Notes under the pieces: generated by a model
Told to the model about the DNA's origin: nothing
The model's database searches: none
What the model saw: only the letters and a program-made list of their open reading frames with translations
Program-made: the position numbers and the translations under genes
From: an uncultured virus (IMG/VR IMGVR_UViG_3300033067_001144)
Lineage: Duplodnaviria > Heunggongvirae > Uroviricota > Caudoviricetes
IMG/VR virus record: IMGVR_UViG_3300033067_001144
Length of the DNA stretch: 20,000 bases
Strand: one strand, 5' to 3'
Shown: positions 2,047 through 15,738 of the stretch, piece by piece
Position numbering within the stretch: the stretch's first letter is position 1
Layout: each line of letters starts with the position of its first letter

Positions 2047-2767
2047 ATCAGCTCTGCAGGACCACGAGCAGAGTGTCGTGAACGGAGTTAGGTCGAGGTC
2101 TGACGCCATTGTCGACAGCATGGCTGCAATGGTTCACCATGAGGCTAAGACCATTCTGCGGGACGCTGGCTTCTCGGAGCTTCCGTACCTTCCAACCTTG
2201 ATCCGCTCCGAAGTGATGGAGCGGCAAGGAACCGTGCCTGAAGATCGCGTCTTTCGCGTGAGCCCTACGCACGTTCTGACAGGTTCGGCTGAGCAGTCAT
2301 ATCTCGATATGATCATGGGGCTGGACGTTACTCCGTGGGGCCCAAGCGACGGGCCCGAGGTCTATCGGCACTTCGCGACAACGCAATGTTACCGTCGAGA
2401 GCCTTGCCCTCAAGGCCTGCACACGCTCTACGAGTTCACGAAGACCGAGCAAATTGGACTGGCAGAGCGGCCAGCCGACGCGATGGACCTCCTCGACCAG
2501 ATGATCTTTAACAGTGAGAAGCTGTGCCGAGAATACAAGATCAAGACACGGCTCGTCGACAACAGCCGCGGAATGCCATCGTACGCAACACGCTCCTGCG
2601 ACCTTGAGGCGGAGACTCAAGCCTACGGCTGGATGGAGATCGGCACCTACACGAACTTCGGCACGGGCCAGAGCCAGCGGTTTGGCTGGACCGGAATGCC
2701 TTACTCCGTGTTTGGTACGATGGTAGCGACACCTCGCTTCCTGATCCCTCTCCTCGAACGCATGTAA
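2030..2767 (+). CDS. Seryl-tRNA synthetase-like protein, class II catalytic core only (245 aa)
   Basis: GGAGG RBS. Motifs LTGSAEQ (TxE loop), CYRRE...GL...EFTKTEQ (motif 2), DLEA...WMEIGTYTN...QSQR and GTMVATPR (motif 3) are collinear with SerRS. No N-terminal coiled-coil arm. Confidence 0.8.
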   Translation: MTTKSKSALQDHEQSVVNGVRSRSDAIVDSMAAMVHHEAKTILRDAGFSELPYLPTLIRSEVMERQGTVPEDRVFRVSPTHVLTGSAEQSYLDMIMGLDVTPWGPSDGPEVYRHFATTQCYRREPCPQGLHTLYEFTKTEQIGLAERPADAMDLLDQMIFNSEKLCREYKIKTRLVDNSRGMPSYATRSCDLEAETQAYGWMEIGTYTNFGTGQSQRFGWTGMPYSVFGTMVATPRFLIPLLERM

Positions 2768-2782
2768 CCGAAAGACACGACC

Positions 2783-3076
2783 ATGAGCATTCTCGGACCC
2801 ATCCTCGACTGGATCGACTCGCTCTCTTCCAAGCGGACGTTTGAGGTGACGATGCCGGAGAGCGTCTACGCTCGCCTGGAGCACATTCGCGCACTTACAC
2901 ACTCCCACTCCGTTACTAGCGTGGTGCGCAAAGCCCTGACACTGTACGACACGCTCGTTCCGTTCGCGAAAGACCCCGCGTTCACGATCACCATTCGTCA
3001 CAAGGACGGTTTGGAGCGAGAGCTCCGACTCGATGACGAGGCCTTCTTCGTTATCATCGTCAAGAACGCAAACTGA
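2783..3076 (+). CDS. Ribbon-helix-helix (CopG-like) DNA-binding protein
   Basis: RTFEVTMPESVYARLEHIR...SVTSVVRKALTLY gives a beta strand plus two helices with the RHH hydrophobic pattern. Confidence 0.6.
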   Translation: MSILGPILDWIDSLSSKRTFEVTMPESVYARLEHIRALTHSHSVTSVVRKALTLYDTLVPFAKDPAFTITIRHKDGLERELRLDDEAFFVIIVKNAN

Positions 3077-3087
3077 AAGGTACAGCC

Positions 3088-4557
3088 ATGAAGACCTTTG
3101 CTATCCGCCTTGGGTTCGCGTGCAACAGCTCCAGCACGCACAGCATCCTCCTGCTCAACGACGCGAGTGGCCTGGAGACCATCCCTAGTTACGGCTTTGG
3201 GGACTACGGCTGGGACTGCTTTCAGCTCGTCACACGACAAGACAAGTCGGACTACCTCGCGGCTCAGATGCTGAGCACGCTGCAGACGTTCAAACAGGCT
3301 GGTCAGTTCCCGATGATGGTCCAAGAGCTGTTGCCAGAGGCAACCTCCATTCCTATGAAGGAGGATGGGTCCTACGAGTACGGCTACGGCGTCGACCACC
3401 AGTCGGTGCGATCGTTCCCCGTCTCGTGGGACGAGACGATGTTGCACTTGGACTGGTTTCGAAGCTTCCGGGACTTCGTACTCGGACCGAACGTCGTTAT
3501 CACGGGAGGCAACGACAACGGAGATGAGAAGGAGTCGATTCCTGCCGAGAATCGACCCAAGCGGAACATCGCTCCGTATTCACCGCTGGACGATCGGAAC
3601 AGCCATGGCGTAGCTCGCTACGACGCACCCTCCGACAGTTGGGTGCTGTTCAATCGATCAACTGGCTTTCGTGTTCGTATGACCTTCAACGACACGCTGC
3701 CCGAGATCGTCTACTCGGAGACCCCTGAGCTAGTGGATGTGAAGATCACGGACAAGTGCGACACGGGTTGCACGTACTGCTACATGGGAAGCACTCCGAG
3801 TGGGGCTCACGCGTCCAACGCGGCCCTCGACAAGCTGGCCAAGGAGCTGGCTGAGATGCGAGTGTTGGAGGTTGCTATTGGTGGCGGAGAAGCAACTCTG
3901 CACCCGTACCTTTCGGTGTTCGCGCAGTCCCTCCGCTCGAACCATGTCGTGCCAAACATCACGACGCGCAACGTCGACTTCGTGCTGGGCCTCGTCAAAG
4001 ATCGTGGTCCGTGGGGTGCCGTCGCGTTCTCAGTCGACACCGCGGAGCAGGTTACGGCCCTTGCGGAACTTGTGGAAGCGACCCGTAAGAGCAGCGGGAC
4101 GGATCGCTACGCTCCGAGCATCTCGATCTCGATCCAATACGTCGTCGGTCTGACGACGAACGAGGCCATCCTTCGAGGAATCTTCAAGGCGTGCAGGGAC
4201 GCTCGCTTCCGCATCACACTCTTGGGCTACAAAACCACGGGCCGTGGGTTGCTCTTCAAGCAGAAAGCAGCGCTTGACTGGTTCCACGTTGCTAAGAAAG
4301 AGAACATGACGCATCTCCTCGGCATCGACACGACCCTGGCTCGCGTCCACGTCGAGGGCCTCGTGCAGAAGGGGGTCGACCCTCGCACCATCACGCAGCA
4401 CGAAGGGCAGTTTTCGTGCTACGTCGACGCGGTAGCGGGCCGCATGCGCATGAGCTCCTACGACAATCAAGAGGGCATCGACATCACGAAGCGCTCCCTC
4501 CACGACGCCTGGGACATGCTCCACGGAAAAGACCCGTCTGCAGGGGATGCCTCGTGA
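3088..4557 (+). CDS. Radical SAM protein with an extra N-terminal domain
   Basis: CDTGCTYCY (CxxxCxxC), VAIGGGEAT, NITT and AFS motifs. The N-terminal ~200 aa begin IRLGFACNSSSTHS. GAAAGG RBS. Confidence 0.9.
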   Translation: MKTFAIRLGFACNSSSTHSILLLNDASGLETIPSYGFGDYGWDCFQLVTRQDKSDYLAAQMLSTLQTFKQAGQFPMMVQELLPEATSIPMKEDGSYEYGYGVDHQSVRSFPVSWDETMLHLDWFRSFRDFVLGPNVVITGGNDNGDEKESIPAENRPKRNIAPYSPLDDRNSHGVARYDAPSDSWVLFNRSTGFRVRMTFNDTLPEIVYSETPELVDVKITDKCDTGCTYCYMGSTPSGAHASNAALDKLAKELAEMRVLEVAIGGGEATLHPYLSVFAQSLRSNHVVPNITTRNVDFVLGLVKDRGPWGAVAFSVDTAEQVTALAELVEATRKSSGTDRYAPSISISIQYVVGLTTNEAILRGIFKACRDARFRITLLGYKTTGRGLLFKQKAALDWFHVAKKENMTHLLGIDTTLARVHVEGLVQKGVDPRTITQHEGQFSCYVDAVAGRMRMSSYDNQEGIDITKRSLHDAWDMLHGKDPSAGDAS

Positions 4558-5465: not shown

Positions 5466-6015
5466 CAAGCTCCCCGTGAAGCTTCGACAAGAGACGTACA
5501 CGTATCTCGCGTGCCCCTACAAGGGATGCGAGGGAGAGCACAGTATTGGGCATCTCCTGAATGGACGAGCTTGTTCATTCGGTCCGTGGTCCTGCCAGGA
5601 ATGTGGACGAATGTTTGGCGGGTCTGTTACGGTCGACGGGACGATCACGGTCGAAGAGCGACCAGGGACCATGCAGGAAGGCCTCGTGTTATTGCGGCTA
5701 CAGCGACCCGAAGGACCCTTGTATCTCGTCGTGCACGACCGTTATTTCCCTCCGTTGGAGGAAGGAGAGACCGAAAACGATCGCTTCGACCGGAAACGAT
5801 TCTACTATGAAGAGCACACATGCCCGACCAACTACATCCCGATCTACGACATTCTCGCTCCCGAAGACGTCGATCCGCATGGGGCCTTTGAGTTCGTAGG
5901 TCTCAGCCGCCCCTACGCTCCGGAGGAATTGGCTCGTGGCAGCGAGGAAGAGCGGTACGCGCAGATTCGGGAGCTGTTCCGCAATCTTGGCGTCCCCTAT
6001 CCGGGGAACGGCTAA
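5458..6015 (+). CDS. Hypothetical protein with a zinc-ribbon-like N-terminus
   Basis: CPYKGC...CQECG, then YYEEHTCPTN. GGAG RBS, overlaps the upstream stop. Confidence 0.7.
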   Translation: MNDKLPVKLRQETYTYLACPYKGCEGEHSIGHLLNGRACSFGPWSCQECGRMFGGSVTVDGTITVEERPGTMQEGLVLLRLQRPEGPLYLVVHDRYFPPLEEGETENDRFDRKRFYYEEHTCPTNYIPIYDILAPEDVDPHGAFEFVGLSRPYAPEELARGSEEERYAQIRELFRNLGVPYPGNG

Positions 6016-6038
6016 TCCACGCACGCAAGGTACCTTTG

Positions 6039-6070
6039 GTGGGGTGGGGTTCAGTCGAGCCCCACCCCAC
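6039..6070 (+). terminator. GC-rich hairpin (terminator-like or regulatory)
   Basis: GTGGGGTGGGGTTC-AGTC-GAGCCCCACCCCAC forms a 14-bp stem with one G-U pair, followed by ACGTGTTT. Confidence 0.55.
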
Positions 6071-6101
6071 ACGTGTTTCCCAAACCTATGGACGAATCTG
6101 C

Positions 6102-7730
6102 ATGAAGAAGTCGCTGCGCAAAGCCATTCAAGCCCACACCGAACGCGAGGTACCCTGCACCGAGAACGGTCTCTACCACGAGGTGATTCACGGTAAGTCA
6201 CACCGTGTGCTGCGCTCCCTTCCCGACCACTGCATTGACGCGTATGTGACGGACCCTCCGGCGGGCATCGAGTTCATGCAAACATCGTGGGATAGTTTTG
6301 GAGGTCGCAACGAAACAGCGTCAGGCCAACGAGATACTGCGCAGTGGAACGTGAAAGGGAAGGACAGCAAGCACGCGAACATTCCCAAGATGCGTCTGAC
6401 GACGAGCCAGGGCTCCTTTCATAAGGGAGCTCGTGAAGCCTTCATCAAGGCTATGCACAAGGTCTTCAAAGAGGTTCTCCGCGTGCTCAAGCCGGGGGCC
6501 TACGCGCTCGTGTGGGCCATTCCTCGTACGTCCCATTGGACGACCACCGCCTTGGAAGACGCTGGCTTCGAGATTCGAGACATTCTCACGCACGTTAATG
6601 TCCAGGGCATGCCAAAGGGGCAAGACCTGGGTCGTATGATCGATCGGAAGCTCGGGAACGAGCGGAAGGTTATTGGTGTCAAAGAAAGCCACAAAGCCCT
6701 GGTCACCAAAGAGGGCAAAGTCCACGACATCGGTAAGAGCCGCAATCAGAAGGCTGCTACGAAGGCGTGGGTAACGCAGCCCCTCAAGACCGCCCCAGCT
6801 TCCTCTCTCGCGGCTAAGTGGGATGGATGGAGCACGACGCTCAAGCCGTGCGGAGAGCACTGGATTCTTGCCCGCGCTCCCATCTCTGAGGGGACGACGG
6901 TCGCGAACGTCCTCGCGCATGGAACGGGTGCCCTCAACATCGACGCCTGCCGTGTCCGTTTCCAATCGGCCGAAGATCAAAAGCAAGCCTCACCACGTCC
7001 GTCTCGGCTACCAAAGCAGGGGTATAACAGTGAGAAGTACGCTCGCTGTGGTCATAAATCTGAGGAAGCCCGAGAAAAATATGACGAGCGTGCACTGGAG
7101 CCCTCCAGAGGACGTTGGCCTCCGAACTTCATGCTGTCCCACCACCCTGCCTGCAAAGCCGCCGGCACGAAGAAGGTGAAGGTCGGCACCGCCTACGAGC
7201 CCAAGAAGGGTTCCGACATGCCGCGTGCCGTGTACGGGAAGTCCAAGACTATGGGCCGCACCGTGACCCACGGAGACGGGTCGGGCACGGAGTCCGTACC
7301 AGCCTGGAAGTGCCACGAAGACTGCCCTGTGCGACATCTTGAAGCCCAAGGCCTCGGGACCTCCCGCTCGTTCCCTCAATTCACCTTCGACCCCGTGTAC
7401 GATGTTCCGTTCGGCTTTCACAGCAAGCCCTCCCGCTCTGAGAAGAATCATCAAGGACAAGTCGAGAACCATCACCCCACGGTCAAGAGCTTGGGATTGT
7501 GTTGTTGGCTGGTGTCTCTCCTTGTTCGCCCTGGAGGCACGGTGCTGGACACCTTTTGTGGGTCTGGGACGATGGGGTGTTCGTCACTCCTAAAAGGAGT
7601 CCACTTTCTAGGGATAGAACAGGACGAGAGCTTCGTGAAGCTTAGCAGGAGACGGCTCAAACTCACCGCAAAAGAGCTGCAAGGGGAGCGTACTCCCCTG
7701 AAGATGCAAGCTCTTTTCAAAGAGGACTAA
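6102..7730 (+). CDS. DNA methyltransferase, N6-adenine/N4-cytosine family (beta-class motif order)
   Basis: Catalytic motif IV variant VTDPPAG near the N-terminus, EVLRVLKPG, HPTVK, and the SAM-binding VLDTFCGSGT...GIE at the C-terminus. Confidence 0.92.
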   Translation: MKKSLRKAIQAHTEREVPCTENGLYHEVIHGKSHRVLRSLPDHCIDAYVTDPPAGIEFMQTSWDSFGGRNETASGQRDTAQWNVKGKDSKHANIPKMRLTTSQGSFHKGAREAFIKAMHKVFKEVLRVLKPGAYALVWAIPRTSHWTTTALEDAGFEIRDILTHVNVQGMPKGQDLGRMIDRKLGNERKVIGVKESHKALVTKEGKVHDIGKSRNQKAATKAWVTQPLKTAPASSLAAKWDGWSTTLKPCGEHWILARAPISEGTTVANVLAHGTGALNIDACRVRFQSAEDQKQASPRPSRLPKQGYNSEKYARCGHKSEEAREKYDERALEPSRGRWPPNFMLSHHPACKAAGTKKVKVGTAYEPKKGSDMPRAVYGKSKTMGRTVTHGDGSGTESVPAWKCHEDCPVRHLEAQGLGTSRSFPQFTFDPVYDVPFGFHSKPSRSEKNHQGQVENHHPTVKSLGLCCWLVSLLVRPGGTVLDTFCGSGTMGCSSLLKGVHFLGIEQDESFVKLSRRRLKLTAKELQGERTPLKMQALFKED

Positions 7731-8778
7731 AGAGCCCTCTTGATCGCAGCCAGGATACGCTTTCGTACCCAAGCCCCTCGCTTGCGGAAGTCGGATTCGA
7801 AAAAGCGTACAACCTGATACCCACACGCTTCCATGTACTTGTCCTGGCTACGATCTAACTTCATCCTTTTCTTCTGGCGATCGTCCAGCGCTTCTTTCGG
7901 GAAGAGCTTTGGATTCCCGTGCCAGTAATCTCCGTCGAACTGAATCACAAGTTTGCGCTTGGGTACGAACGCGTCAACGCAGAACTTTCCCTTGAAGAGA
8001 TGCTGGGCCTCATACCGTATTTCCAAGCCATCTAGCATCTCATACGCCTCAACCTCGAACTTGTTCGGGCCTTTAGCCTCTTGTTGCTTCTGATTCATGT
8101 CCAGAAGGTGTCTCTTAACCTTCGGGCTGGCGTCCCTGCATTTTAGGGAGCAATATTTCCTTTTGACGGAAGGGGAAGTCCAGAACTTTACCTTACACAC
8201 TTTGCACGTGCGTTCCTTCTTCTTTCTTCTCGCGTGTACGCTGCAGCATTCCAAGGAACATGTTAGACTCTTCGCCTCAAGCCTTTGCTTCTTTGCGTAG
8301 AACTCTTCGCCACACACGCAGCAGTTCACGTACCTGCCCGTTCTCTTTCCGGGCTTCGGAGCCCCTGACTCGTAATGGCAGCGAGCTGAGCAGTACGTCC
8401 TGATGCAATTTGTTTGTGTAAATTCTTCTCCACAGGTCGGGCATTCTTTGACTTCCCGCTCATACACGGTCATGCCCTGAGTCATGCACTGCTTGCTGCA
8501 GAACTTTTTATCAGCTCTCGCCTTAGTGGCATAGAACTCCCCTCCGCACTCCGCGCAGTTCTTAGTTCTTCCTGTTTTCCTTCCAGGCCTCGTCCCTGAC
8601 TTGTAGAAGCAAGGCCTAGAGCAGAACACTCTGGCTCTCTGCTTCTTGGTCTTGTCCTTCATAACAACGGCGCACGTCGGGCACTTTTTCATATGATCTC
8701 CAGGAACAGTCAGAGTAATTGCTCTAATGAAATGGATAACCTGTCTAGACAGACAATAAGCCTGGTTGGTCTAGGTCA
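7479..8778. mobile_element. 1300-bp endonuclease cassette carrying a replacement methyltransferase 3' end
   Basis: ACGGTCAA (TVK) occurs at 7479 and again at 8779, each followed by a homologous methyltransferase C-terminus. The segment between is visibly more AT-rich and contains the only convincing minus-strand gene. Confidence 0.75.
7727..8692 (-). CDS. Zinc-finger-repeat plus DUF559/Vsr-like endonuclease (putative free-standing homing endonuclease)
   Basis: Five CxxC...[FYT]CSxxC units, then FCVDAF...LVIQFDGDYWHG...D...GYQVVRFFESD. Very basic. Its stop overlaps the methyltransferase stop. Confidence 0.85.
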   Translation of the reverse strand: MKKCPTCAVVMKDKTKKQRARVFCSRPCFYKSGTRPGRKTGRTKNCAECGGEFYATKARADKKFCSKQCMTQGMTVYEREVKECPTCGEEFTQTNCIRTYCSARCHYESGAPKPGKRTGRYVNCCVCGEEFYAKKQRLEAKSLTCSLECCSVHARRKKKERTCKVCKVKFWTSPSVKRKYCSLKCRDASPKVKRHLLDMNQKQQEAKGPNKFEVEAYEMLDGLEIRYEAQHLFKGKFCVDAFVPKRKLVIQFDGDYWHGNPKLFPKEALDDRQKKRMKLDRSQDKYMEACGYQVVRFFESDFRKRGAWVRKRILAAIKRAL

Positions 8779-9027
8779 ACGGTCAAATCAATTTCCCTTA
8801 TGCGCTGACTTGGGCGGTTAATCTGCCCACCTGGAGGAGTTGTGCTGGATACCTTTTTCGGGTCGGGAACGACGGGAGCGGCTTGCCTCAAGGAAGGCTT
8901 CCACGTGCTCGGGATCGAGCAGGACCGAGACTTCCACAAGCTGGGACGCAAGCGCTTGCGTCTCACGGCCAAGGACGCAAAGCCTGAACTCATGAAGGCC
9001 CTTTTCGCACCTCGGAGTTCCAAATGA
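8779..9027 (+). pseudogene. Displaced duplicate methyltransferase C-terminus
   Basis: Translates TVKSISLMR*LGRLICPPGGVVLDTFFGSGTTGAACLKEGFHVLGIEQD...RLRLTAK...MKALF, collinear with TVKSLGLCCWLVSLLVRPGGTVLDTFCGSGT...RLKLTAK...MQALF. TGA at 8806 sits where the intact copy has Trp. Confidence 0.85.
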
Positions 9028-9284
9028 AGAGTGGACTGTACGCTCGCTACAAACGCCGTGCCTTTCGGACCCTTCCCGGAGACCTCCCGAAGCACGACAA
9101 GATCGAGTTGCTGCACAGCAAGCCCTCCCAGCTTCCGGGCCGGATGCAGGCTGGCCATCTCATTCAGACAGCCGCACACAGCAAGGCCTTCCGTCGGGAC
9201 TTCGTACACGGCACCAACCGCAAACTGCGCCATGAGAAGGCCAAGTCGATTCGAGCCCTCCTCACCGATCAAGAGGACGACTAG
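9024..9284 (+). CDS. Small basic hypothetical protein
   Basis: 86-aa ORF with an ATGA overlap with the displaced methyltransferase end. Confidence 0.65.
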   Translation: MKSGLYARYKRRAFRTLPGDLPKHDKIELLHSKPSQLPGRMQAGHLIQTAAHSKAFRRDFVHGTNRKLRHEKAKSIRALLTDQEDD

Positions 9285-9300
9285 CCCGTAAAGGAAGATC

Positions 9301-9525
9301 ATGAGCACCACCAAGACCCCTCCCAAAGCCTCTGTCACCCTGCATCTCAGCCGCACGATCAAGCCCAGGGACTATGAGGCCGTGAAGGCCGAGATCACGA
9401 TCCATCTCGAAGGGGAAGCCTCTGAGCTCGATACGATTCTCGCGACCGTCTCGGAGAAGACGCGTACGGGTTTCGAGCGCGAGGTCAAGTACCTCAACAA
9501 GAAGATCAAGAACAACGAGCTGTAG
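9301..9525 (+). CDS. Small hypothetical protein
   Basis: AAAGGA RBS, 74 aa, strongly G/C-ending codons. Confidence 0.75.
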   Translation: MSTTKTPPKASVTLHLSRTIKPRDYEAVKAEITIHLEGEASELDTILATVSEKTRTGFEREVKYLNKKIKNNEL

Positions 9526-9552
9526 CCTTTCACGTCCGTAGGAGTCCTGACC

Positions 9553-12500
9553 ATGAAGCTTCCCCCTCCGAATCCGGCCGCTGTCCTCCCGCATCTTCGT
9601 ACGTACGCGAAAGCCGTACAGGACGAACTCAGGCATCAGCGAATCCCCACTCCCGCCTCCGTGCTCCGTACGAACGACGGGTGGATGGGGAAGCTTCCGG
9701 CTCCTGCGGTGGTCTGCACGTTGTTGCGCACTTTGACGGTGGGTCATCGAAGCAACCTCAAGAACTCTCCCATCTCTGTAGCAGAGTTGTTCTCGAAGTT
9801 GCTGTCGGGTCCGTGGGAGGGCTATGTCGAGCAGCAGATGGCCGACGCTCTTTTGCTGCTCCGGCCCAACGGTCCCGCACCCGAATGTGAGGAGACCGCG
9901 CAGCTTCGCGCACTAGCGGCAGAGACGAGCCAGCTTACGGCGTGGATCTCCGAGCAGACGGTCATCCGACTCGACAGGGGGCAGGATACGCTCCACGCGA
10001 ACATCGAGCTGACCGGCATCGAAGCCGGAGGCAACTTGTTCCCGTTGTTCTATGGGGTCCTCGCGGAATTGGATCGAAGCGTCCACTTGAGCTCTGACGT
10101 GGGGCTGTGGCGCAAATGGTCCCAGGAAGTCCCGGTTCTCTGGGAGCGTCTTCTGGAGAAAGGGGGAGCCCCCGATCCTTCTTCGGTGCGTGAGCTTTTC
10201 ACGCGGGCCGAGGTACTGAATCTTCCTGTGTCGTTGAGCTTGTACGCGATTGCCATGTCGCACCCCGCGATGCTTTCGACGGAGGTCACGTTCCAGAACA
10301 TCGTGAGCAGTGAGGGGAAGAAGGTGTCTCGGGACGACCAGCTCAAAGCCCTCCGATCGAGACGTCAGGACGAGGACAAGATGCCTCACGAGGAGCAGCC
10401 TTCCCCGCTGGTCTACCCGCACGTTGCCGACGGCAAGCCCGTGTGGCGAAGCCTGTGCCTGCAGGCCTCCGACGGGCCCTTGGTCCGCGAACGCAACGAT
10501 GGAACGCAGCTTCGGCACCCATACCTCTATGCACTCGCGCGACACATGGGTCTGAGCCCCGTTTCTCCTCACGTAGTGCTGAGCTCCGTCTCTCCTGAGC
10601 ACGCAGGATTTGACGATTTCGAGCCTCAACAGGAGATCGAGGCTTCCGTGGTTCGTAGTGCGGGTCAGGAGGGATCCCTCGCTCTCGTAGGCGATTCGAC
10701 CAACACGCATCTCAGGGCTAAGGCTTGTATCCTGCTGGAAGACTTCCGAAGGCTCTATCACATGGACGTGAAGACGTCCCCGACCATCTTTCGGAACACA
10801 AGCGGCCTCTTTCCGGCCTTGGGCTTTCTGCCCCAGAACCAGAAAGCCTCGTCGTACCTGGGGACGCTGGAGTATCACCTCTACACGATCCTCTACAACA
10901 TCTCCCGTGGGCATCCTGACAAGTTGGTCCGTTCTCGTGCGTTCAACAGTGCGTCGACGCTGCACACGTACGCCTCCACAGACGAGCTACTCACGTACGC
11001 ACTGAGCGTAGAGCTTTTGGCCAAAGACGTCGGGTACTGGGATGTGATTCCAACCTCGTTCGTAGAGTCGCTGGAAGAAATACGGAGAATGCTGACGTCA
11101 ACTCAGGCGACCGCTGTCGAACCCACAGAACCGAAGCCTGACAGGGCTGCTTGGTTGCCGCTCTCGTTGGAGCCTTTGACGTCTCAGGGGGAGATATTGA
11201 AGACGCACACCCAGACGCGTTACGTCCACCCCTGGACGTACGCTCTTGCCCTGAAGACACTCCCCGATCCCTCCGTTTTGTTCAGGACGGAGACCGTACT
11301 GCACGAAGTATCCCCTCTGGACCACCAAGCCCTTTCGTGGGACGCACACGGAACTCCAATCGTCCCTCCCGGACCGCACGCGGTCAACTTCCAGAGCGCG
11401 TTTGACGCCACGCAAGACGCTCTTAAGGGTCCAGCTTTTCGTGCGGAATGCCTTGCTCAAAACAAGGGGACGGACTGGAGATTCGCGACTTGGATACTAC
11501 CCAACGGGGGCCAGAGCACGGAGCACAAGCTTCGCATCTTGCTCTACCAATTCGTGTATCGCCTCTCCCACCTGAACCTAGGTCGTAATCTTGCACACAG
11601 CATGGATCGACTCCTCGATACAATCACAAAGGGCACAGTTGAAGAGCTCGTCGAGTCGTGCGTGACCATCACCTCTCTCATCGAGAAGGAAGACTTTCCT
11701 CTCGACGTACCCGACGCCTATGGAGATGCTGTGACCGACCTGATTTCTAAGCTTCAACGAGAGACGGCTTCCGTTGAGGAAAAGGTCGAGACGCAACCTC
11801 GTACGCGCTCGTGGCTGCACTTCTCTGTAGCCGTTCCCGAAGATGCTGTATGCGCTCCGTGTGAGCACATTCGCAATACGTTCCGCAATACGTTCCTTCA
11901 TCCATGGCTCTACGCGCTGGCCCTGAAGCGGCTCGGTCCAAAAGCCGCTTCATCATTGGTCAGTGAGCGTTCCCAGCGAGGTGTGATCCAATACTGGTCG
12001 TCGGGTCACCCGGACCTTCCCCACGCTTCTTTTCTGTGGACCCCTCCTCTCGCAGAACTTGGCATCGCCAAGGCTGAGCTTGAAGAGAAGGCTACTGAAG
12101 ACCTGAAGCCTGAGGGCTGTGATGAAGCCGATTGGAACGCATTCGTGCTGGAGGCCGATGGCCTCCACATGCGTCGGCACAATCTTACGGTCACCTACGA
12201 CCCGAATACCGAGTGGGCTGTCCTTCCGGTTCCTCCTGGTGGTCCCAAAATCAGTGCGACCGACCACCTTCGCGCTCTCGCCTACCAACTTGCGTTCCAG
12301 CTCCTGCATTCCGCTCCGGGTGGCCAGTCCTACATCGATCTTCTTCAGTTCCGGGATCGGATTCTCGATCCGAGCCTAAGCACGAAGAGACTCATGCAAG
12401 AGATTCTCGACGTGCTCAAGCGGTGCCCCGAGGACTATCGACTGGAGATTCCTGACGCATACATGACGTCCCTGGAGAAGCTTGCGGCAGAGCTTCATCT

Positions 12501-15500
12501 GACGAAGGAATCTCCCGCGGAAAAGAACGCGGCCCTAAATATCCGCGCGTCCCGAGCCGAGGCTATCCTACAGAGCGCTTCCGAGCTTGCTCTTCCGCCC
12601 AACGTCGCTGTGCAGGGAGAGGCTGTCGTGGCTGACTTTCACACCTACAACAGGAAAGACCCTTTGAGCGCATCCGTCCCCGTGGCACCTCAGCAAACCA
12701 CCCTTCCTGCCCGTGGGAAGGTATGGCAATCCATGTACTCCGCTTCGGGGTCTGAGCCGTACTATGAGATGCCCCGACAAAGCGTTGAGTTTGCGCATCC
12801 TTGGCTTTTGGCCGCGGCTCACATAGCAGGCTTCTCGCCAGAAGTGATTGACGACCTTGTGCGCGAGGAAGCCGCTCGTCACGGGAGCGCTCGTGCTCAA
12901 TTCTCTACTCATGCTTCTACAACTCTTTTGCAGAAGCTCCACTCGTTCGCAGAGCGTCACGAGAAGGCACCAGAAGGAAAAGACTCGTCGATCTATCGGA
13001 CGAATCTGGTCGATCGCTTCAAGGCCGCTGTCTCAAAGCTTGATCACTTCTCTCCTGGGGATGGGGAAGACACCCCGTGGCTTGGGGACGACGTGGCGTT
13101 CGCAGCGCAGCAGTGGTTTCACGCGAAGGCCAAGCGCGGAGAAGAAGTCTGCGTCAACGACATGCTGGAGTTCTACGGCTACACACTGCTGTTCCAGCTC
13201 GCGTACTGGAGCAGCGTACCCACGGAAGAGATCGCGAAACTGTGGTCTAAGGACCGGAGGACCTACGGGCGCTCTCTGGTGAAAGAAGCGCTGCGTCTTT
13301 CGGACGAGGACCAATTCGACATCCCGGATTCGATTCTGGCTACGCTGCAGTACCTGCTGTTGCGCGAGGGATCGTCTCCGATGGATGAGAACTACATCCA
13401 ATCGGGAAGCTTGATCTCTTTTCCTCTCCCGGCGAAGGTGGCTACCGTTCCCAGCGTCACAAGGGCCCTCGCGGAGTCTCTCGAAGAACTGACGTGGACG
13501 TGGGACGAGACTCACGTCACAATCCGCAGGAAGAACGAGACTCCTCTTATTACGTGTTATCGCTCTTCTCTGGCCTCGTTCGAGGCGAACGGAATCACCT
13601 ATACCACGGAGGTCCCTCCCAACATGGAGGGATCTCTGGCTGGTTCGTACACGAGAAATACGACCTCGGATGCGAAGATCGAGGCCCCCATGAAAGAGGC
13701 CACTGCTGCTATCCTTCCTACGCCTCCAAAGCCGCTCCCCTCGTTGCAGACACCTCTACAGCAACAGGAAGGAAAGGCCCCCGTAAAGGAGGAGCATGAA
13801 GAAACTTACGAGGCTAGACACTTGGCCTTCCCGAGGGAGGACATGACGTTCTCCTACGATTCTCGCGACTCGGTGTACGCTACGACACGCGCAGGGACGC
13901 GCGCACAGTTTGCACTACGAGTCTCAGCACTCCAGCGAGAGGTTCTGTCCACGCTGGACATAGGTAAGGACAGGTGGGTATCTCTGCTCACCGCCTCAGG
14001 TTTGTGGGAACCTGCACACCCCTATACCTTCGACCTATTCCACCTTGCGATGGCTCGCCTTCATTTGGAGTTCCCTAGGGATGCGTCGCGTCTTGGAGGT
14101 CACGAGTGGAGTTCCGAAGTTCTCCGACATGCGCTGGACGGAGGGAACAATCTCACGGAAGCTCACTCCACCGCGAGGCCTTGGGACGGGGGAGCTTCGC
14201 TGATACTGGCAGTGGAAAGCATCGCAGCGCGGGAAGAAGCTGCGTTCCGCGACACAGTACCGACGGGTACTAGTAAGGCAGCTTTCGATCTCCGATCACG
14301 TGCACTTCGCGCATTCTCGACCTTACTTAGTAAGATGGGGCCTGAGGCGGTAGACCGACTGCAGTCAGACACCAATCCACTGCAGTCACTCAACGACGCG
14401 AAAGACGTGGGGGTAGACGGGACCGCGTGGTCCCTGACATACCACGTAGCTCATCGCGTGATTCTTCACCTTAAGCGCACACGCGGGGCTTCGTTGCGCA
14501 GAGCAATTGATGTCATTCGCATGACATACTGGCGCTCAGCAGCCCCTGCTTACCAGCTTCGAGAGATTCTCAATATTGCACGGCAGGAAGAGATTCGCCT
14601 CCCGACGTATCTCCTCTTTCAGCTCTCAGAGCACGTCGATGCGAACGAGAAAGTCTGGGCAGAATTGCAGGAGGATGGGGTGGACCAACTCCGTAAAGAA
14701 TTGAGCACCTACCCCTATCGTACGAACGATTCGGGGTATGGCTTGACCACGAAAGGAACGACCATGACGGACAAGACGGCTAGCAACGAGAGGATCGAGC
14801 AAGAGATGCGGGTCGCTGTAGGCAAGGCTCAGGCGAGGCTGAAGCGTGCGAGTGACGAAGAAGAGGAGCTCGATGTGGTGAGAGGTGAGACTTCGGCTGA
14901 TAGCGGTGCGGCCTCTGCTACTCCCTACCGCAAGCGTTCATTCAATGCGAGTGAACTACACAGCCTCGTGGAGAAGGCTGCTAGCGCTACGTTCGCTTCC
15001 AGATTCAAGCGTTTCGTCCACGATGGACTCAACAGTGAGGATCCGGAGGAACGAGGGATGGCCCGAGAACTCGTAAAGGCGATGGAGCGCGGGATCGATA
15101 AGACTCCGGAAGAGGATACGAGGAACCTCGAAATCGAGCTCGCAGACGAGAGTGAAGAGGCCAAGCGTCCGTGGTACATGCCCTCCGATACCCTCATCGA
15201 CGACGTGAAGGGCTACGGCATCGAGGGGGTCGTGCGGCTCACCCGCGAAGAGGCCATCGACATGATTCGTGCTCCCGTTCTCTCCTTCTGGAGGAAGGAG
15301 AGCGGTGGGGGTCCGACGGGCAAGATGGTGAAGGCTATGGGAGCCCACTTCTTCCGAGAGGGCGGTAAGCCGGGGGAAGCGGTTCTGTCGGGTCTGGCCG
15401 GGGCTGCGATTCCGTTTGCCATCGAGGCCTTCTCTCCCGAGGATCAGAAACTGCTCCGCAAGGCCTCGGGTGCGCTCCGCAAGGAATTCTTCGGCCACGC

Positions 15501-15738
15501 CTCCCACATGGTCCTCGGCTCCGTGTGGAAGGAGATCAAAGAGCCGCTCAAGGAGGCTCTCGTTCCCCTTCTCTCGAAGATGAAAGAAGCGGCCACGACG
15601 GTGAACGTGGCCAAGGGTGCGCTCGGAGCCGCGAAGACCCGCATCGACGTTCGAGACGCGTCGCGTGATGACGACGTGCACGCAGAAGTGGGCCGCGGCC
15701 GTTCGACGGCCGACCGACGCGCACACAAGCGCGACTAG
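9553..15738 (+). CDS. Very large hypothetical protein (2061 aa) with degenerate internal repeats
   Basis: AGGAG RBS and an uninterrupted ORF. Recurrent W...HP[YW]xxAxA motifs. Possible internal in-frame start at 14764. Confidence 0.8.
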   Translation: MKLPPPNPAAVLPHLRTYAKAVQDELRHQRIPTPASVLRTNDGWMGKLPAPAVVCTLLRTLTVGHRSNLKNSPISVAELFSKLLSGPWEGYVEQQMADALLLLRPNGPAPECEETAQLRALAAETSQLTAWISEQTVIRLDRGQDTLHANIELTGIEAGGNLFPLFYGVLAELDRSVHLSSDVGLWRKWSQEVPVLWERLLEKGGAPDPSSVRELFTRAEVLNLPVSLSLYAIAMSHPAMLSTEVTFQNIVSSEGKKVSRDDQLKALRSRRQDEDKMPHEEQPSPLVYPHVADGKPVWRSLCLQASDGPLVRERNDGTQLRHPYLYALARHMGLSPVSPHVVLSSVSPEHAGFDDFEPQQEIEASVVRSAGQEGSLALVGDSTNTHLRAKACILLEDFRRLYHMDVKTSPTIFRNTSGLFPALGFLPQNQKASSYLGTLEYHLYTILYNISRGHPDKLVRSRAFNSASTLHTYASTDELLTYALSVELLAKDVGYWDVIPTSFVESLEEIRRMLTSTQATAVEPTEPKPDRAAWLPLSLEPLTSQGEILKTHTQTRYVHPWTYALALKTLPDPSVLFRTETVLHEVSPLDHQALSWDAHGTPIVPPGPHAVNFQSAFDATQDALKGPAFRAECLAQNKGTDWRFATWILPNGGQSTEHKLRILLYQFVYRLSHLNLGRNLAHSMDRLLDTITKGTVEELVESCVTITSLIEKEDFPLDVPDAYGDAVTDLISKLQRETASVEEKVETQPRTRSWLHFSVAVPEDAVCAPCEHIRNTFRNTFLHPWLYALALKRLGPKAASSLVSERSQRGVIQYWSSGHPDLPHASFLWTPPLAELGIAKAELEEKATEDLKPEGCDEADWNAFVLEADGLHMRRHNLTVTYDPNTEWAVLPVPPGGPKISATDHLRALAYQLAFQLLHSAPGGQSYIDLLQFRDRILDPSLSTKRLMQEILDVLKRCPEDYRLEIPDAYMTSLEKLAAELHLTKESPAEKNAALNIRASRAEAILQSASELALPPNVAVQGEAVVADFHTYNRKDPLSASVPVAPQQTTLPARGKVWQSMYSASGSEPYYEMPRQSVEFAHPWLLAAAHIAGFSPEVIDDLVREEAARHGSARAQFSTHASTTLLQKLHSFAERHEKAPEGKDSSIYRTNLVDRFKAAVSKLDHFSPGDGEDTPWLGDDVAFAAQQWFHAKAKRGEEVCVNDMLEFYGYTLLFQLAYWSSVPTEEIAKLWSKDRRTYGRSLVKEALRLSDEDQFDIPDSILATLQYLLLREGSSPMDENYIQSGSLISFPLPAKVATVPSVTRALAESLEELTWTWDETHVTIRRKNETPLITCYRSSLASFEANGITYTTEVPPNMEGSLAGSYTRNTTSDAKIEAPMKEATAAILPTPPKPLPSLQTPLQQQEGKAPVKEEHEETYEARHLAFPREDMTFSYDSRDSVYATTRAGTRAQFALRVSALQREVLSTLDIGKDRWVSLLTASGLWEPAHPYTFDLFHLAMARLHLEFPRDASRLGGHEWSSEVLRHALDGGNNLTEAHSTARPWDGGASLILAVESIAAREEAAFRDTVPTGTSKAAFDLRSRALRAFSTLLSKMGPEAVDRLQSDTNPLQSLNDAKDVGVDGTAWSLTYHVAHRVILHLKRTRGASLRRAIDVIRMTYWRSAAPAYQLREILNIARQEEIRLPTYLLFQLSEHVDANEKVWAELQEDGVDQLRKELSTYPYRTNDSGYGLTTKGTTMTDKTASNERIEQEMRVAVGKAQARLKRASDEEEELDVVRGETSADSGAASATPYRKRSFNASELHSLVEKAASATFASRFKRFVHDGLNSEDPEERGMARELVKAMERGIDKTPEEDTRNLEIELADESEEAKRPWYMPSDTLIDDVKGYGIEGVVRLTREEAIDMIRAPVLSFWRKESGGGPTGKMVKAMGAHFFREGGKPGEAVLSGLAGAAIPFAIEAFSPEDQKLLRKASGALRKEFFGHASHMVLGSVWKEIKEPLKEALVPLLSKMKEAATTVNVAKGALGAAKTRIDVRDASRDDDVHAEVGRGRSTADRRAHKRD
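11872..11895 (+). repeat. Perfect 12-bp in-frame tandem duplication
   Basis: CGCAATACGTTC twice, encoding RNTF-RNTF. Confidence 0.9.

Follow-up and report, generated by a model that had tools for sequence, protein, structure and literature searches.

A probable homing-endonuclease cassette carrying a replacement 3′ end for the DNA methyltransferase gene it interrupts in an uncultured phage-like genome

Mobile open reading frame (mORF) elements of fungal mitochondria combine an endonuclease ORF with a foreign, in-phase C-terminal part that completes the invaded gene, and leave the native C-terminal part (C*) downstream; they are described for atp6, atp9, cox2 and nad3 of Glomus sp. and, as cited there, for atp6 of Allomyces macrogynus (Beaudet et al. 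2013, PMC3630166). The native end of such an element agrees with the intact gene found in a close relative, from which the inserted end has diverged much further. In phages, free-standing Vsr-like homing endonucleases lie inside "fractured genes" (Dassa et al. 2009, PMC2677866), and at mobA between gene 39 and gene 60 of T4 an intragenic endonuclease comes with extra sequence that protects the occupied allele, with the host gene remaining usable (PMC5009743); other intronless homing is described for T4-type phages (bioRxiv 10.1101/2022.08.31.505936, PMC2988022). These phage examples are gene splits or bypass cassettes, and our literature search found no phage or bacterial endonuclease with a replacement gene end, which is not proof that none is in print. 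Here, we describe a locus in a 20,000-nucleotide (nt) stretch of DNA from an uncultured virus (IMG/VR record IMGVR_UViG_3300033067_001144), hereafter the window, in which an antisense endonuclease gene lies between two versions of the 3′ end of a DNA methyltransferase (MTase) gene. Positions 7479-8778 very probably represent a mobile homing-endonuclease cassette that was inserted in a beta-class PF01555 MTase gene at the HP/TVK codons, and that is made up of a foreign MTase 3′ end, a convergent antisense endonuclease gene and the 86-nt region upstream of that gene. The features of the locus are these:

6102..7478, plus strand: N-terminal part of the MTase, residues 1-459 of a hybrid of 542 amino acids (aa); Pfam PF01555, E = 4.3e-19
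7479..7730, plus strand: replacement 3′ end of the MTase, cassette-borne (TVKSLGL...FCGSGTMG...KED), with stop TAA at 7728-7730
7479..7486, plus strand: left copy of the 8-nt core ACGGTCAA (Thr-Val-Lys codons)
7727..8692, minus strand: free-standing endonuclease gene, 321 aa, with a DUF559 match; its stop overlaps the MTase stop by 4 nt
8693..8778, minus strand: 86-nt region upstream of the endonuclease gene and right end of the cassette; GC 0.42; absent from the empty allele
8779..8786, plus strand: right copy of the core ACGGTCAA (8 nt), with a near-tandem GGTCAA ahead of it at 8774-8779
8779..9027, plus strand: native 3′ end of the MTase, an orphaned remnant; PF01555, E = 4.7e-11
9024..9284, plus strand: next gene, 86 aa, without a family match, coupled to the native MTase end; unchanged right flank

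The locus resembles an mORF in having an in-phase end that completes the gene and a native end downstream, and in its pattern of divergence, with 2 differences in 1722 positions between the native side and an uninterrupted relative, and 99 in 225 between the two ends. The nucleotide identity of the inserted end is lower here, at 56%, than the 64-81% given for Glomus mORFs (PMC3630166). In addition, the genome is phage-like and comes from wastewater or freshwater rather than from an organelle, the nuclease is zinc-ribbon/Vsr-like rather than LAGLIDADG or GIY-YIG, the endonuclease gene is antisense and convergent, and the target is a DNA MTase. At the T4 locus the gene is split and a 50-nt translational bypass is used (PMC5009743, available part), whereas in the window the end of the gene is replaced. 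The genes described by Dassa et al. are likewise split and not repaired by a spare end, and the available text of PMC2677866 makes no mention of a methyltransferase or methylase. Insertions at conserved sites in the same broad MTase family have been described in mycobacteriophages (Gosselin et al. 2023, PMC9957025), but those elements are an intein, an in-frame LAGLIDADG domain and a "ShiLan domain", and the portion of that paper that was searched mentions neither vsr, DUF559, Fishburne nor Seagreen.

The MTase ORF is listed from a TTG at 6036, and its likely start is the ATG at 6102, which gives 542 aa as in a database protein (P0001) and two near-identical members. Its N-terminal part runs up to the His-Pro of an HPTVK motif and includes the family motif DPPAG, which departs from the catalytic pattern (D/N/S)PP(Y/F/W); since Ala is the consensus of the subfamily there (111 of 120 homologs), DPPAG would be a trait of the subfamily and not damage. 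The segment at 7479-7730 follows in frame and completes a hybrid ORF that passes the PF01555 family threshold (69.8 bits against a cut-off of 26.7). The Thr-Val-Lys codons (ACG GTC AAR) found at 7479 recur at 8779, a spacing of exactly 1300 nt, and the frame that follows is open and free of frameshifts apart from a TGA at 8806-8808, where the upstream copy has Trp. This downstream frame ends in a TGA (9025-9027) that overlaps the ATG of the next ORF as ATGA. Aligned as proteins, the two ends are identical at 45 of 80 residues (E = 2e-27), and the downstream end by itself covers positions 166-218 of the 221 in PF01555 (43.5 bits). Both retain the C-terminal S-adenosylmethionine (AdoMet) motif FxGxG, which reads FCGSGT upstream and FFGSGT in the remnant. 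The remnant no longer has a translation start. The original prediction, made from the sequence alone, had already placed the MTase end twice, exactly 1300 nt apart, around an antisense endonuclease, and the ORF map and the sequence agree with it, as they do on the upstream copy completing the ORF, the TGA at the Trp position and the ATGA at 9024.

According to an index of public sequencing runs, DNA of the window is nearly whole in wastewater and activated-sludge runs and partly present in freshwater, riverine and other sludge runs. Four public metagenome runs (X6, X7, X10 and X20) were compared with positions 5500-10500. The occupied form was recovered in X20, an independent assembly from a run not flagged as a possible source, in which two pieces (5715-8743 and 8722-9547) match the window with 0 differences and together span both occupied junctions; pieces of the endonuclease gene, also with 0 differences, are present in X7. 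An empty form was found in the other two runs. Position 7478 is joined directly to 8779, skipping 1300 nt, in a 12,798-nt contig from freshwater (X6), where the two pieces are adjacent at record positions 12151 and 12152, and again in a 389-nt contig from activated sludge of another study (X10). Because an 8-nt repeat is too short to be collapsed by an assembler, related genomes do carry one uninterrupted gene. From 8779 to 10500 the X6 contig differs from the window at 2 of 1722 positions, whereas 7263-7478 differs at 23 of 216 (10.6%, 89% identical), and X10 has the same 23 differences. An empty allele thus exists in nature and, since it runs the N-terminal part straight into 8779 and is near-identical to the right of it, the downstream end is the native one and the upstream end came with the cassette. 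The native end has barely changed since it was orphaned, given that it lies in a segment that differs by at most 2 of 1722 positions from one with a live end. The search for uninterrupted alleles had been set beforehand as a check, and the expectation that their 3′ end would be the downstream copy, as the original end of the gene, was borne out.

Divergence between the empty and occupied genomes shifts sharply at the cassette, which places the nuclease gene on a boundary of genetic exchange. Further to the left, pieces of the X6 contig differ from the window at 5 of 56, 19 of 134, 16 of 255, 34 of 219 and 8 of 137 positions, with replaced segments between them. Since the left flank is diverged and the right flank is not, the two genomes differ by more than the cassette, and the asymmetry could reflect either a long leftward co-conversion or mosaicism that is unrelated to the cassette. 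Within the MTase gene, third-position GC (GC3) falls to 0.40-0.50 at 6942-7062, compared with 0.69 for the gene, in a stretch that encodes a run rich in Lys, Glu and Ser, and the X6 relative has no alignment at 88% likeness over approximately 6953-7262; this may represent either a variable insert or another exchanged segment. No close relative of the window was found by DNA among phage records, in which MTases are at most 37% identical by protein, nor among viral and genome contigs searched with the MTase, the 2061-aa neighbor and a 52-nt exact stretch of the remnant. In a protein collection, with the window's own protein set aside, the best MTase is at most 48% identical over part of its length, and the top-scoring full-length matches are 37-39% identical. 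The exact protein of the next gene is found on 6 contigs, compared with 5 for the endonuclease protein.

Measured against the X6 relative, the gene changes at a single point: immediately before 7479 the divergence is 10.6%, and from there on the upstream end is 44% different from the relative's end (the remnant). The two ends differ at 99 of 225 sites (44%), with a third-position identity of 0.34, pS of 0.748, dN of 0.447 and dN/dS of 0.10. Saturation of synonymous sites indicates long-diverged alleles and not a local duplication, and both ends carry the signature of long evolution as part of a working gene. The remnant scores higher than the upstream end against 115 of 119 MTase homologs (mean 69.3 versus 59.4 bits), and it has the consensus GSGTTG, where the upstream copy reads GSGTMG; Thr is found at this position in 115 of 120 homologs. 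A collection-wide search by region matched 22 proteins to the remnant, and for the upstream end the same search gave no relative but its own protein among 102 candidates.

The endonuclease has five zinc-ribbon-like CxxC...C(x3)C repeats at about residues 1-190 and a Vsr/DUF559-like nuclease domain at about residues 205-321. It had been predicted as a zinc-finger/DUF559 enzyme; CxxC...CxxxC modules recur in the N-terminal half, and Pfam gives a DUF559 match of 24.5 bits against a threshold of 20.6; weaker matches are to REase_MTES_1575 (below threshold) and Vsr. Residues E213, D240, QFDGDYWH at 251-258, D280, R296 and E299 are invariant in 15 aligned homologs, and every one of them is present in the window's endonuclease. 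A profile of these homologs matches two structures, E. coli Vsr (1cw0, E = 1.4e-7) and a DUF559 protein (3hrl, E = 4.9e-5). In the alignment to 1cw0, D240 corresponds to Asp51 and Y256-W257-H258 to Phe67-Trp68-His69, of which Phe67 and Trp68 are the intercalating residues; the partner of D280 is the Asp in VERD of Vsr, which we take to be Asp97. These equivalents of Vsr-fold residues, which speak for membership of the PD-(D/E)xK superfamily, are all invariant in the 15 homologs. The match to I-Bth0305I (3r3p) is weak, at E = 0.24 with the single sequence and 0.065 with the profile, and an invariant Gln (Q251 in all 15 homologs) replaces the Glu that is invariant at the Vsr Phe62 position in the family of Dassa et al. 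(PMC2677866, available part). We therefore file the enzyme as Vsr/DUF559-like and not with the I-Bth0305I type, from which the zinc-ribbon repeats also set it apart. A match to PHROG 3339, "homing endonuclease" (E = 2.4e-8), was also obtained, and related PHROGs carry the labels "homing endonuclease" or "HNH endonuclease".

On the minus strand, a GGAG lies a few bases ahead of the endonuclease ATG, and a simple scan for sigma-70 promoters and terminators found nothing. A group I intron or an intein was considered as the carrier and rejected: Rfam gave 0 matches at E ≤ 1 over 6900-9400, with no intron-like RNA, and the endonuclease ORF is antisense to its host gene.

Scans with the endonuclease sequence or its profile yielded 21 viral, 80 metagenome and 10 genome loci. 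Profiles for the two parts of the MTase, N and C, divided at the Thr of HPTVK, were mapped on all loci together with the endonuclease profile. After merging of identical endonuclease DNA, 90 distinct cases remained, the window included. A PF01555 part lies within 700 nt of the endonuclease in 67 of the 90, and across these the HP/T-V-K codon position recurs. The most frequent layout (29 of 90) is a split MTase gene with the endonuclease antisense, in the order C part, endonuclease, N part. Seven of the 90, namely the window, L050, L051, L055, L076, L080 and L092, have an antisense endonuclease with a C part on both sides; a search for endonuclease homologs between duplicated MTase ends, which had been proposed as a check, thus turned up 6 further loci among 89 other distinct homologs. 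At another 6 loci a whole MTase ends at the 3′ side of the endonuclease and the other side has no MTase, at 3 loci the split gene and the endonuclease share one strand (in the order N part, endonuclease, C part), and at 2 a whole MTase lies upstream on the same strand. An MTase part is present on one side only in 20 cases, the other flank being too short in 18 and empty in 2. Of the remainder, 16 have no MTase within 700 nt despite adequate flanks, and 7 have none but also have short flanks. The 16 homologs without a nearby PF01555 gene (L008, L013, L014, L016, L017, L026, L046, L056, L057, L073, L078, L105, L108, L109, L110 and L114) include some in bacterial genomes (Geminicoccus, Rhizobium, Tranquillimonas), and may have other targets or be at rest.

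Wherever it is not cut short, the MTase piece on the 5′ side of the endonuclease starts at profile position 1-3, that is, at the T or V of HPTVK. In five of the six other loci with duplicated ends the remnant begins right after the His-Pro codons, the start at L051 being cut by the end of its contig, and the endonuclease start codon is about 25-60 nt away; one such subfamily has the motif HPCxKP. The original prediction had offered either HPTVK or DxFxGSGT as the target, and the junction lies at HP/TVK and not at DxFxGSGT. At the five loci that could be compared, identity between the two ends is 50-74%, with 35-63 columns aligned. At L007 a whole gene is accompanied in this position by a relic of 11 residues (RTVKPIDLMKW), seemingly a more advanced stage of decay. 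L021 (3650-5480) holds a decayed element in which 17 residues of an antisense endonuclease are left (QFDGDYWH region). In a tree of the endonucleases, loci with duplicated ends and loci with whole genes are often neighbors and are intermixed with split loci, and in a tree of the C ends (64 columns) the cassette-side ends do not form one clade. The trees thus give no sign that a particular lineage of spare ends moves together with a particular lineage of endonucleases.

The split layout is also found in 17 records of sequenced mycobacteriophages, and in these the target recurs in another pair of alleles, independent of the first. Arib1 has an empty, uninterrupted gene and Fishburne an occupied, split one, and their genes are about 95% identical. 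The Fishburne insert, of approximately 970 nt, replaces 21 nt that encode ANGVAHPT, and its right border falls inside the Thr codon of HPT/VKP. The element is therefore seen as a discrete unit that is present or absent in two settings, 1300 nt long between the window and X6 or X10, and about 970 nt long between Fishburne and Arib1. In Seagreen, a "DNA endonuclease (vsr)" is annotated between a "DNA methyltransferase" and a small "methyltransferase".

Under the cassette reading, the predicted endonuclease would cut empty alleles at or beside ACGGTCAA in the sequence that encodes HPTVK. The break would then be repaired from an occupied genome, with strand invasion on the left, in the N part, and copying of the foreign end and the endonuclease gene, and the right side would be rejoined at the break through homology with a remnant in the donor or through the 8-nt microhomology. 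The recipient's own 3′ end would survive from the cut site onward. We propose that the new end brought by the cassette keeps the MTase gene functional, and the occupied allele should be immune, since each of its junctions keeps only a half-site and the 8-nt core. These 8 letters fit either side of the empty-allele joint. At the right junction (8774-8786), GGTCAA occurs twice with one base between (GGTCAACGGTCAA), and at many split loci the GT(G/C)AAGCC core is likewise partly repeated within the gap, as in TGAAGCC followed directly by GTCAAGCC.

Could the two ends instead have arisen on the spot, by tandem duplication of the 3′ end when the endonuclease inserted, followed by divergence and with no foreign DNA involved? 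Their being nearest neighbors in the C-end tree would fit such an origin, as would rare or unique features that they share, such as LGIEQD and LTAK. Nevertheless, the pS and dN/dS values indicate that both copies were translated for a long time, and a long-orphaned copy would not have kept a frame with a single stop, a higher score against the family than the live copy has (115 of 119) and at most 2 differences in the 1722 positions from 8779 to 10500 with the live end of an uninterrupted relative, so that we give a local duplication very little credence. Less credible still, to the point of being nearly negligible, is that the downstream piece is left over from a second, separate MTase whose 5′ part was deleted. 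Phages do often carry several MTases, and more than one PF01555 gene is present at several related loci (L050, L060, L090, Fishburne and Seagreen), but the uninterrupted relative has one gene whose N part leads directly into 8779, and the remnants at five complete duplicated-end loci begin at the same codon as the C parts of 29 two-sided split loci.

The endonuclease might also be a working partner of the MTase, in restriction or in mismatch repair of the Vsr type, as in Dcm-Vsr, with its position being incidental. Its Pfam matches to REase_MTES_1575 and Vsr and its Vsr fold are what such a partner would have; in addition, 16 of 90 homologs have no MTase within 700 nt despite adequate flanks. 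We regard this as very unlikely. At 29 split and 7 duplicated-end loci the gene sits inside the MTase frame, always at a single conserved codon position; it is either there or missing as a precise unit of 1300 or about 970 nt, and it travels with sequences that repair the gene. Moreover, the MTase belongs to PF01555 and is not a C5 enzyme. A different objection concerns the alleles in X6 and X10, which could have lost the cassette precisely and secondarily, through the 8-nt direct repeat ACGGTCAA that flanks it, rather than being ancestral. Loss belongs to the usual life cycle of such elements, and L021 and L007 show states of decay. A recent deletion, however, should match the window on both sides, whereas the left flank differs by 6-15% and has replaced segments, and for this reason secondary loss is unlikely; even if it had occurred, the cassette would remain a discrete unit, and the end that works without it would still be the downstream copy.

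Several points nevertheless weigh against reading 7479-8778 as a homing cassette with a replacement end. The C-end tree places the two ends of the window as nearest neighbors, with a long branch to the live copy; because they are sisters, the donor would have been a related MTase lineage, and the word foreign rests on divergence and not on position in the tree. No donor for this end was found in the protein collection. Duplicated ends are a minority state (7 of 90), and when flanks were compared with flanks in the first 21 viral loci none were found, as they appeared only in the wider metagenome set. We infer the activity and the target of the endonuclease from its sequence. In the empty allele, TGG versus TGA at 8806-8808 could not be read, as the listing of differences starts 31 nt from the end of a contig or piece and 8808 is 29 nt from the joint. 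Between the window and the relative with the empty allele, divergence is 6-15% on the left, where segments have been replaced, and 0.1% on the right, so that the flanks do not show which lineage was invaded. Finally, compositional support is weak. The upstream copy had been expected to use more A/T-ending codons and the distal part of the downstream copy to follow the local style; the former is only faintly visible (GC3 of 0.614 in the upstream end and 0.646 in the remnant), while the latter is seen in the distal 61 codons of the remnant (0.72). Given that GC3 is 0.691 in the N part (standard deviation 0.06 in 83-codon windows) and 0.642 in the endonuclease, so that the differences lie within about 1-2.5 standard deviations of such windows, codon usage does not decide between the copies. 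Overall GC is 0.49-0.54 over approximately 7550-8850 and 0.55-0.64 on the flanks. A co-conversion tract was considered as the source of the low GC3 in the first 21 codons of the remnant (0.43; binomial p = 0.012) and rejected: the empty allele carries the same sequence, and this start is therefore native.

Split-type relatives of the window's element interrupt the MTase gene without a spare end, and their cassettes encode two short conserved segments at the break. One is a tail of about 30 aa on the N fragment (consensus ~LRLRADLTxEQRxYVxxELRKAGV), and the other a small leader ORF (consensus ~MRDxxxxE(I/V)PxHLxxYFxxV...HPT), which has a ribosome-binding-like GGTGAT and its own start. Both are absent from the empty allele of Arib1, which reads ...ERPSANGVAHPTVKP..., and may help the two fragments to reassemble. 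The intein-less SbcD-like fragments of Dassa et al. similarly have extra residues at the break (PMC2677866, available part). A split intein was considered for the tail and leader and rejected, as on our reading of the sequences the tail does not start with Cys or Ser and the leader lacks the C-terminal His-Asn of intein junctions. In Fishburne, gene 59 (30 aa) is the leader ORF and gene 60 (68 aa) the C fragment, and the "hypothetical protein" gene 58 (2453-3259) is annotated on the MTase strand, opposite a Vsr-like endonuclease ORF. Examples are located as follows:

L010, 4737-4830 and 3860-3960; L022; empty L115 (Arib1), 1380-1450: tail and leader
L010, 3780-4060; L009, L012, L015, L006, L002 and 31 more; Fishburne (L022), 2135-2453; minus strand: leader ending in HPT and a stop, just past the endonuclease start

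The leader ORF ends in HPT in 37 of 39 loci, and in 35 of those 37 a stop codon comes next. The gap to the Val of VKP is 5 nt at one locus, 6 at 8, 7 at 16, 8 at 6, 9 at 3 and 10 at 3, and the frame relation across it varies even among close relatives. Val is followed by Lys in 37 of 37 (AAG in 21, AAA in 16) and by Pro in 36 of 37, where each of the four CCN codons is used; conservation of Lys and Pro with free third positions points to selection on V-K-P at the protein level. Start codons are rare at the C fragment, with GTG as the Val codon in 7 of 39 loci and a start within 12 nt upstream in 5 of 39, and ordinary re-initiation therefore fails to explain most of the split loci. At three same-strand loci, L062 (990-1200), L077 (4120-4330) and L101 (1150-1370), a single open frame spans the leader, HPT and VK(S/P), and likewise leader, HPT and VKP at L048, with two extra residues before VKP, and a fused product thus seems to be intended. 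The same-strand locus L063 (1200-1400) has the HPT-stop and the shift, like the antisense loci. At L021, the N part, tail and leader up to HPT lie in one open frame, which also encloses the antisense endonuclease relic; a TGA and an 8-nt gap then come before VKP.

The codon directly before Val is ACN or GCN in 34 of 37 loci. This is consistent with the hypothesis that a peptidyl-tRNA(Thr) makes a short hop over the stop, from ACN to the ACN or GCN before Val, the one mechanism that would fit every gap length. According to Atkins et al. 2016 (PMC5009743), no natural stop hop was known. If true, culturable mycobacteriophages such as Fishburne would harbor the first family of stop hops found in nature. 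The hop concerns relatives of the window's element and not the window itself. A broader suggestion, which we offer tentatively and consider doubtful as a whole, is that the family is a specialist parasite of HP/T-V-K in PF01555 MTases that has several ways of sparing its host, the stop hop among them.

To the right of the next gene, a 2061-aa ORF at 9553-15738 has no Pfam match and no relative in the scans of viral and genome contigs.

The locus indicates that the spare-gene-end strategy of fungal mitochondria has a counterpart in a phage-like genome, where a free-standing endonuclease uses it. The natural evidence is unusually direct and makes for a good experimental system: because both alleles circulate in wastewater and freshwater, the target site, the borders and the immunity of the occupied allele can be tested directly. 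The nuclease gene provides a concrete case of such a gene lying at a sharp boundary of relatedness between two genomes. For the wider family, the HPTVK codons offer a conserved target for a large group of uncharacterized nucleases, which could be profiled as site-specific enzymes, and the element explains why sequenced mycobacteriophages contain odd gene calls and small orphan ORFs labeled "methyltransferase".

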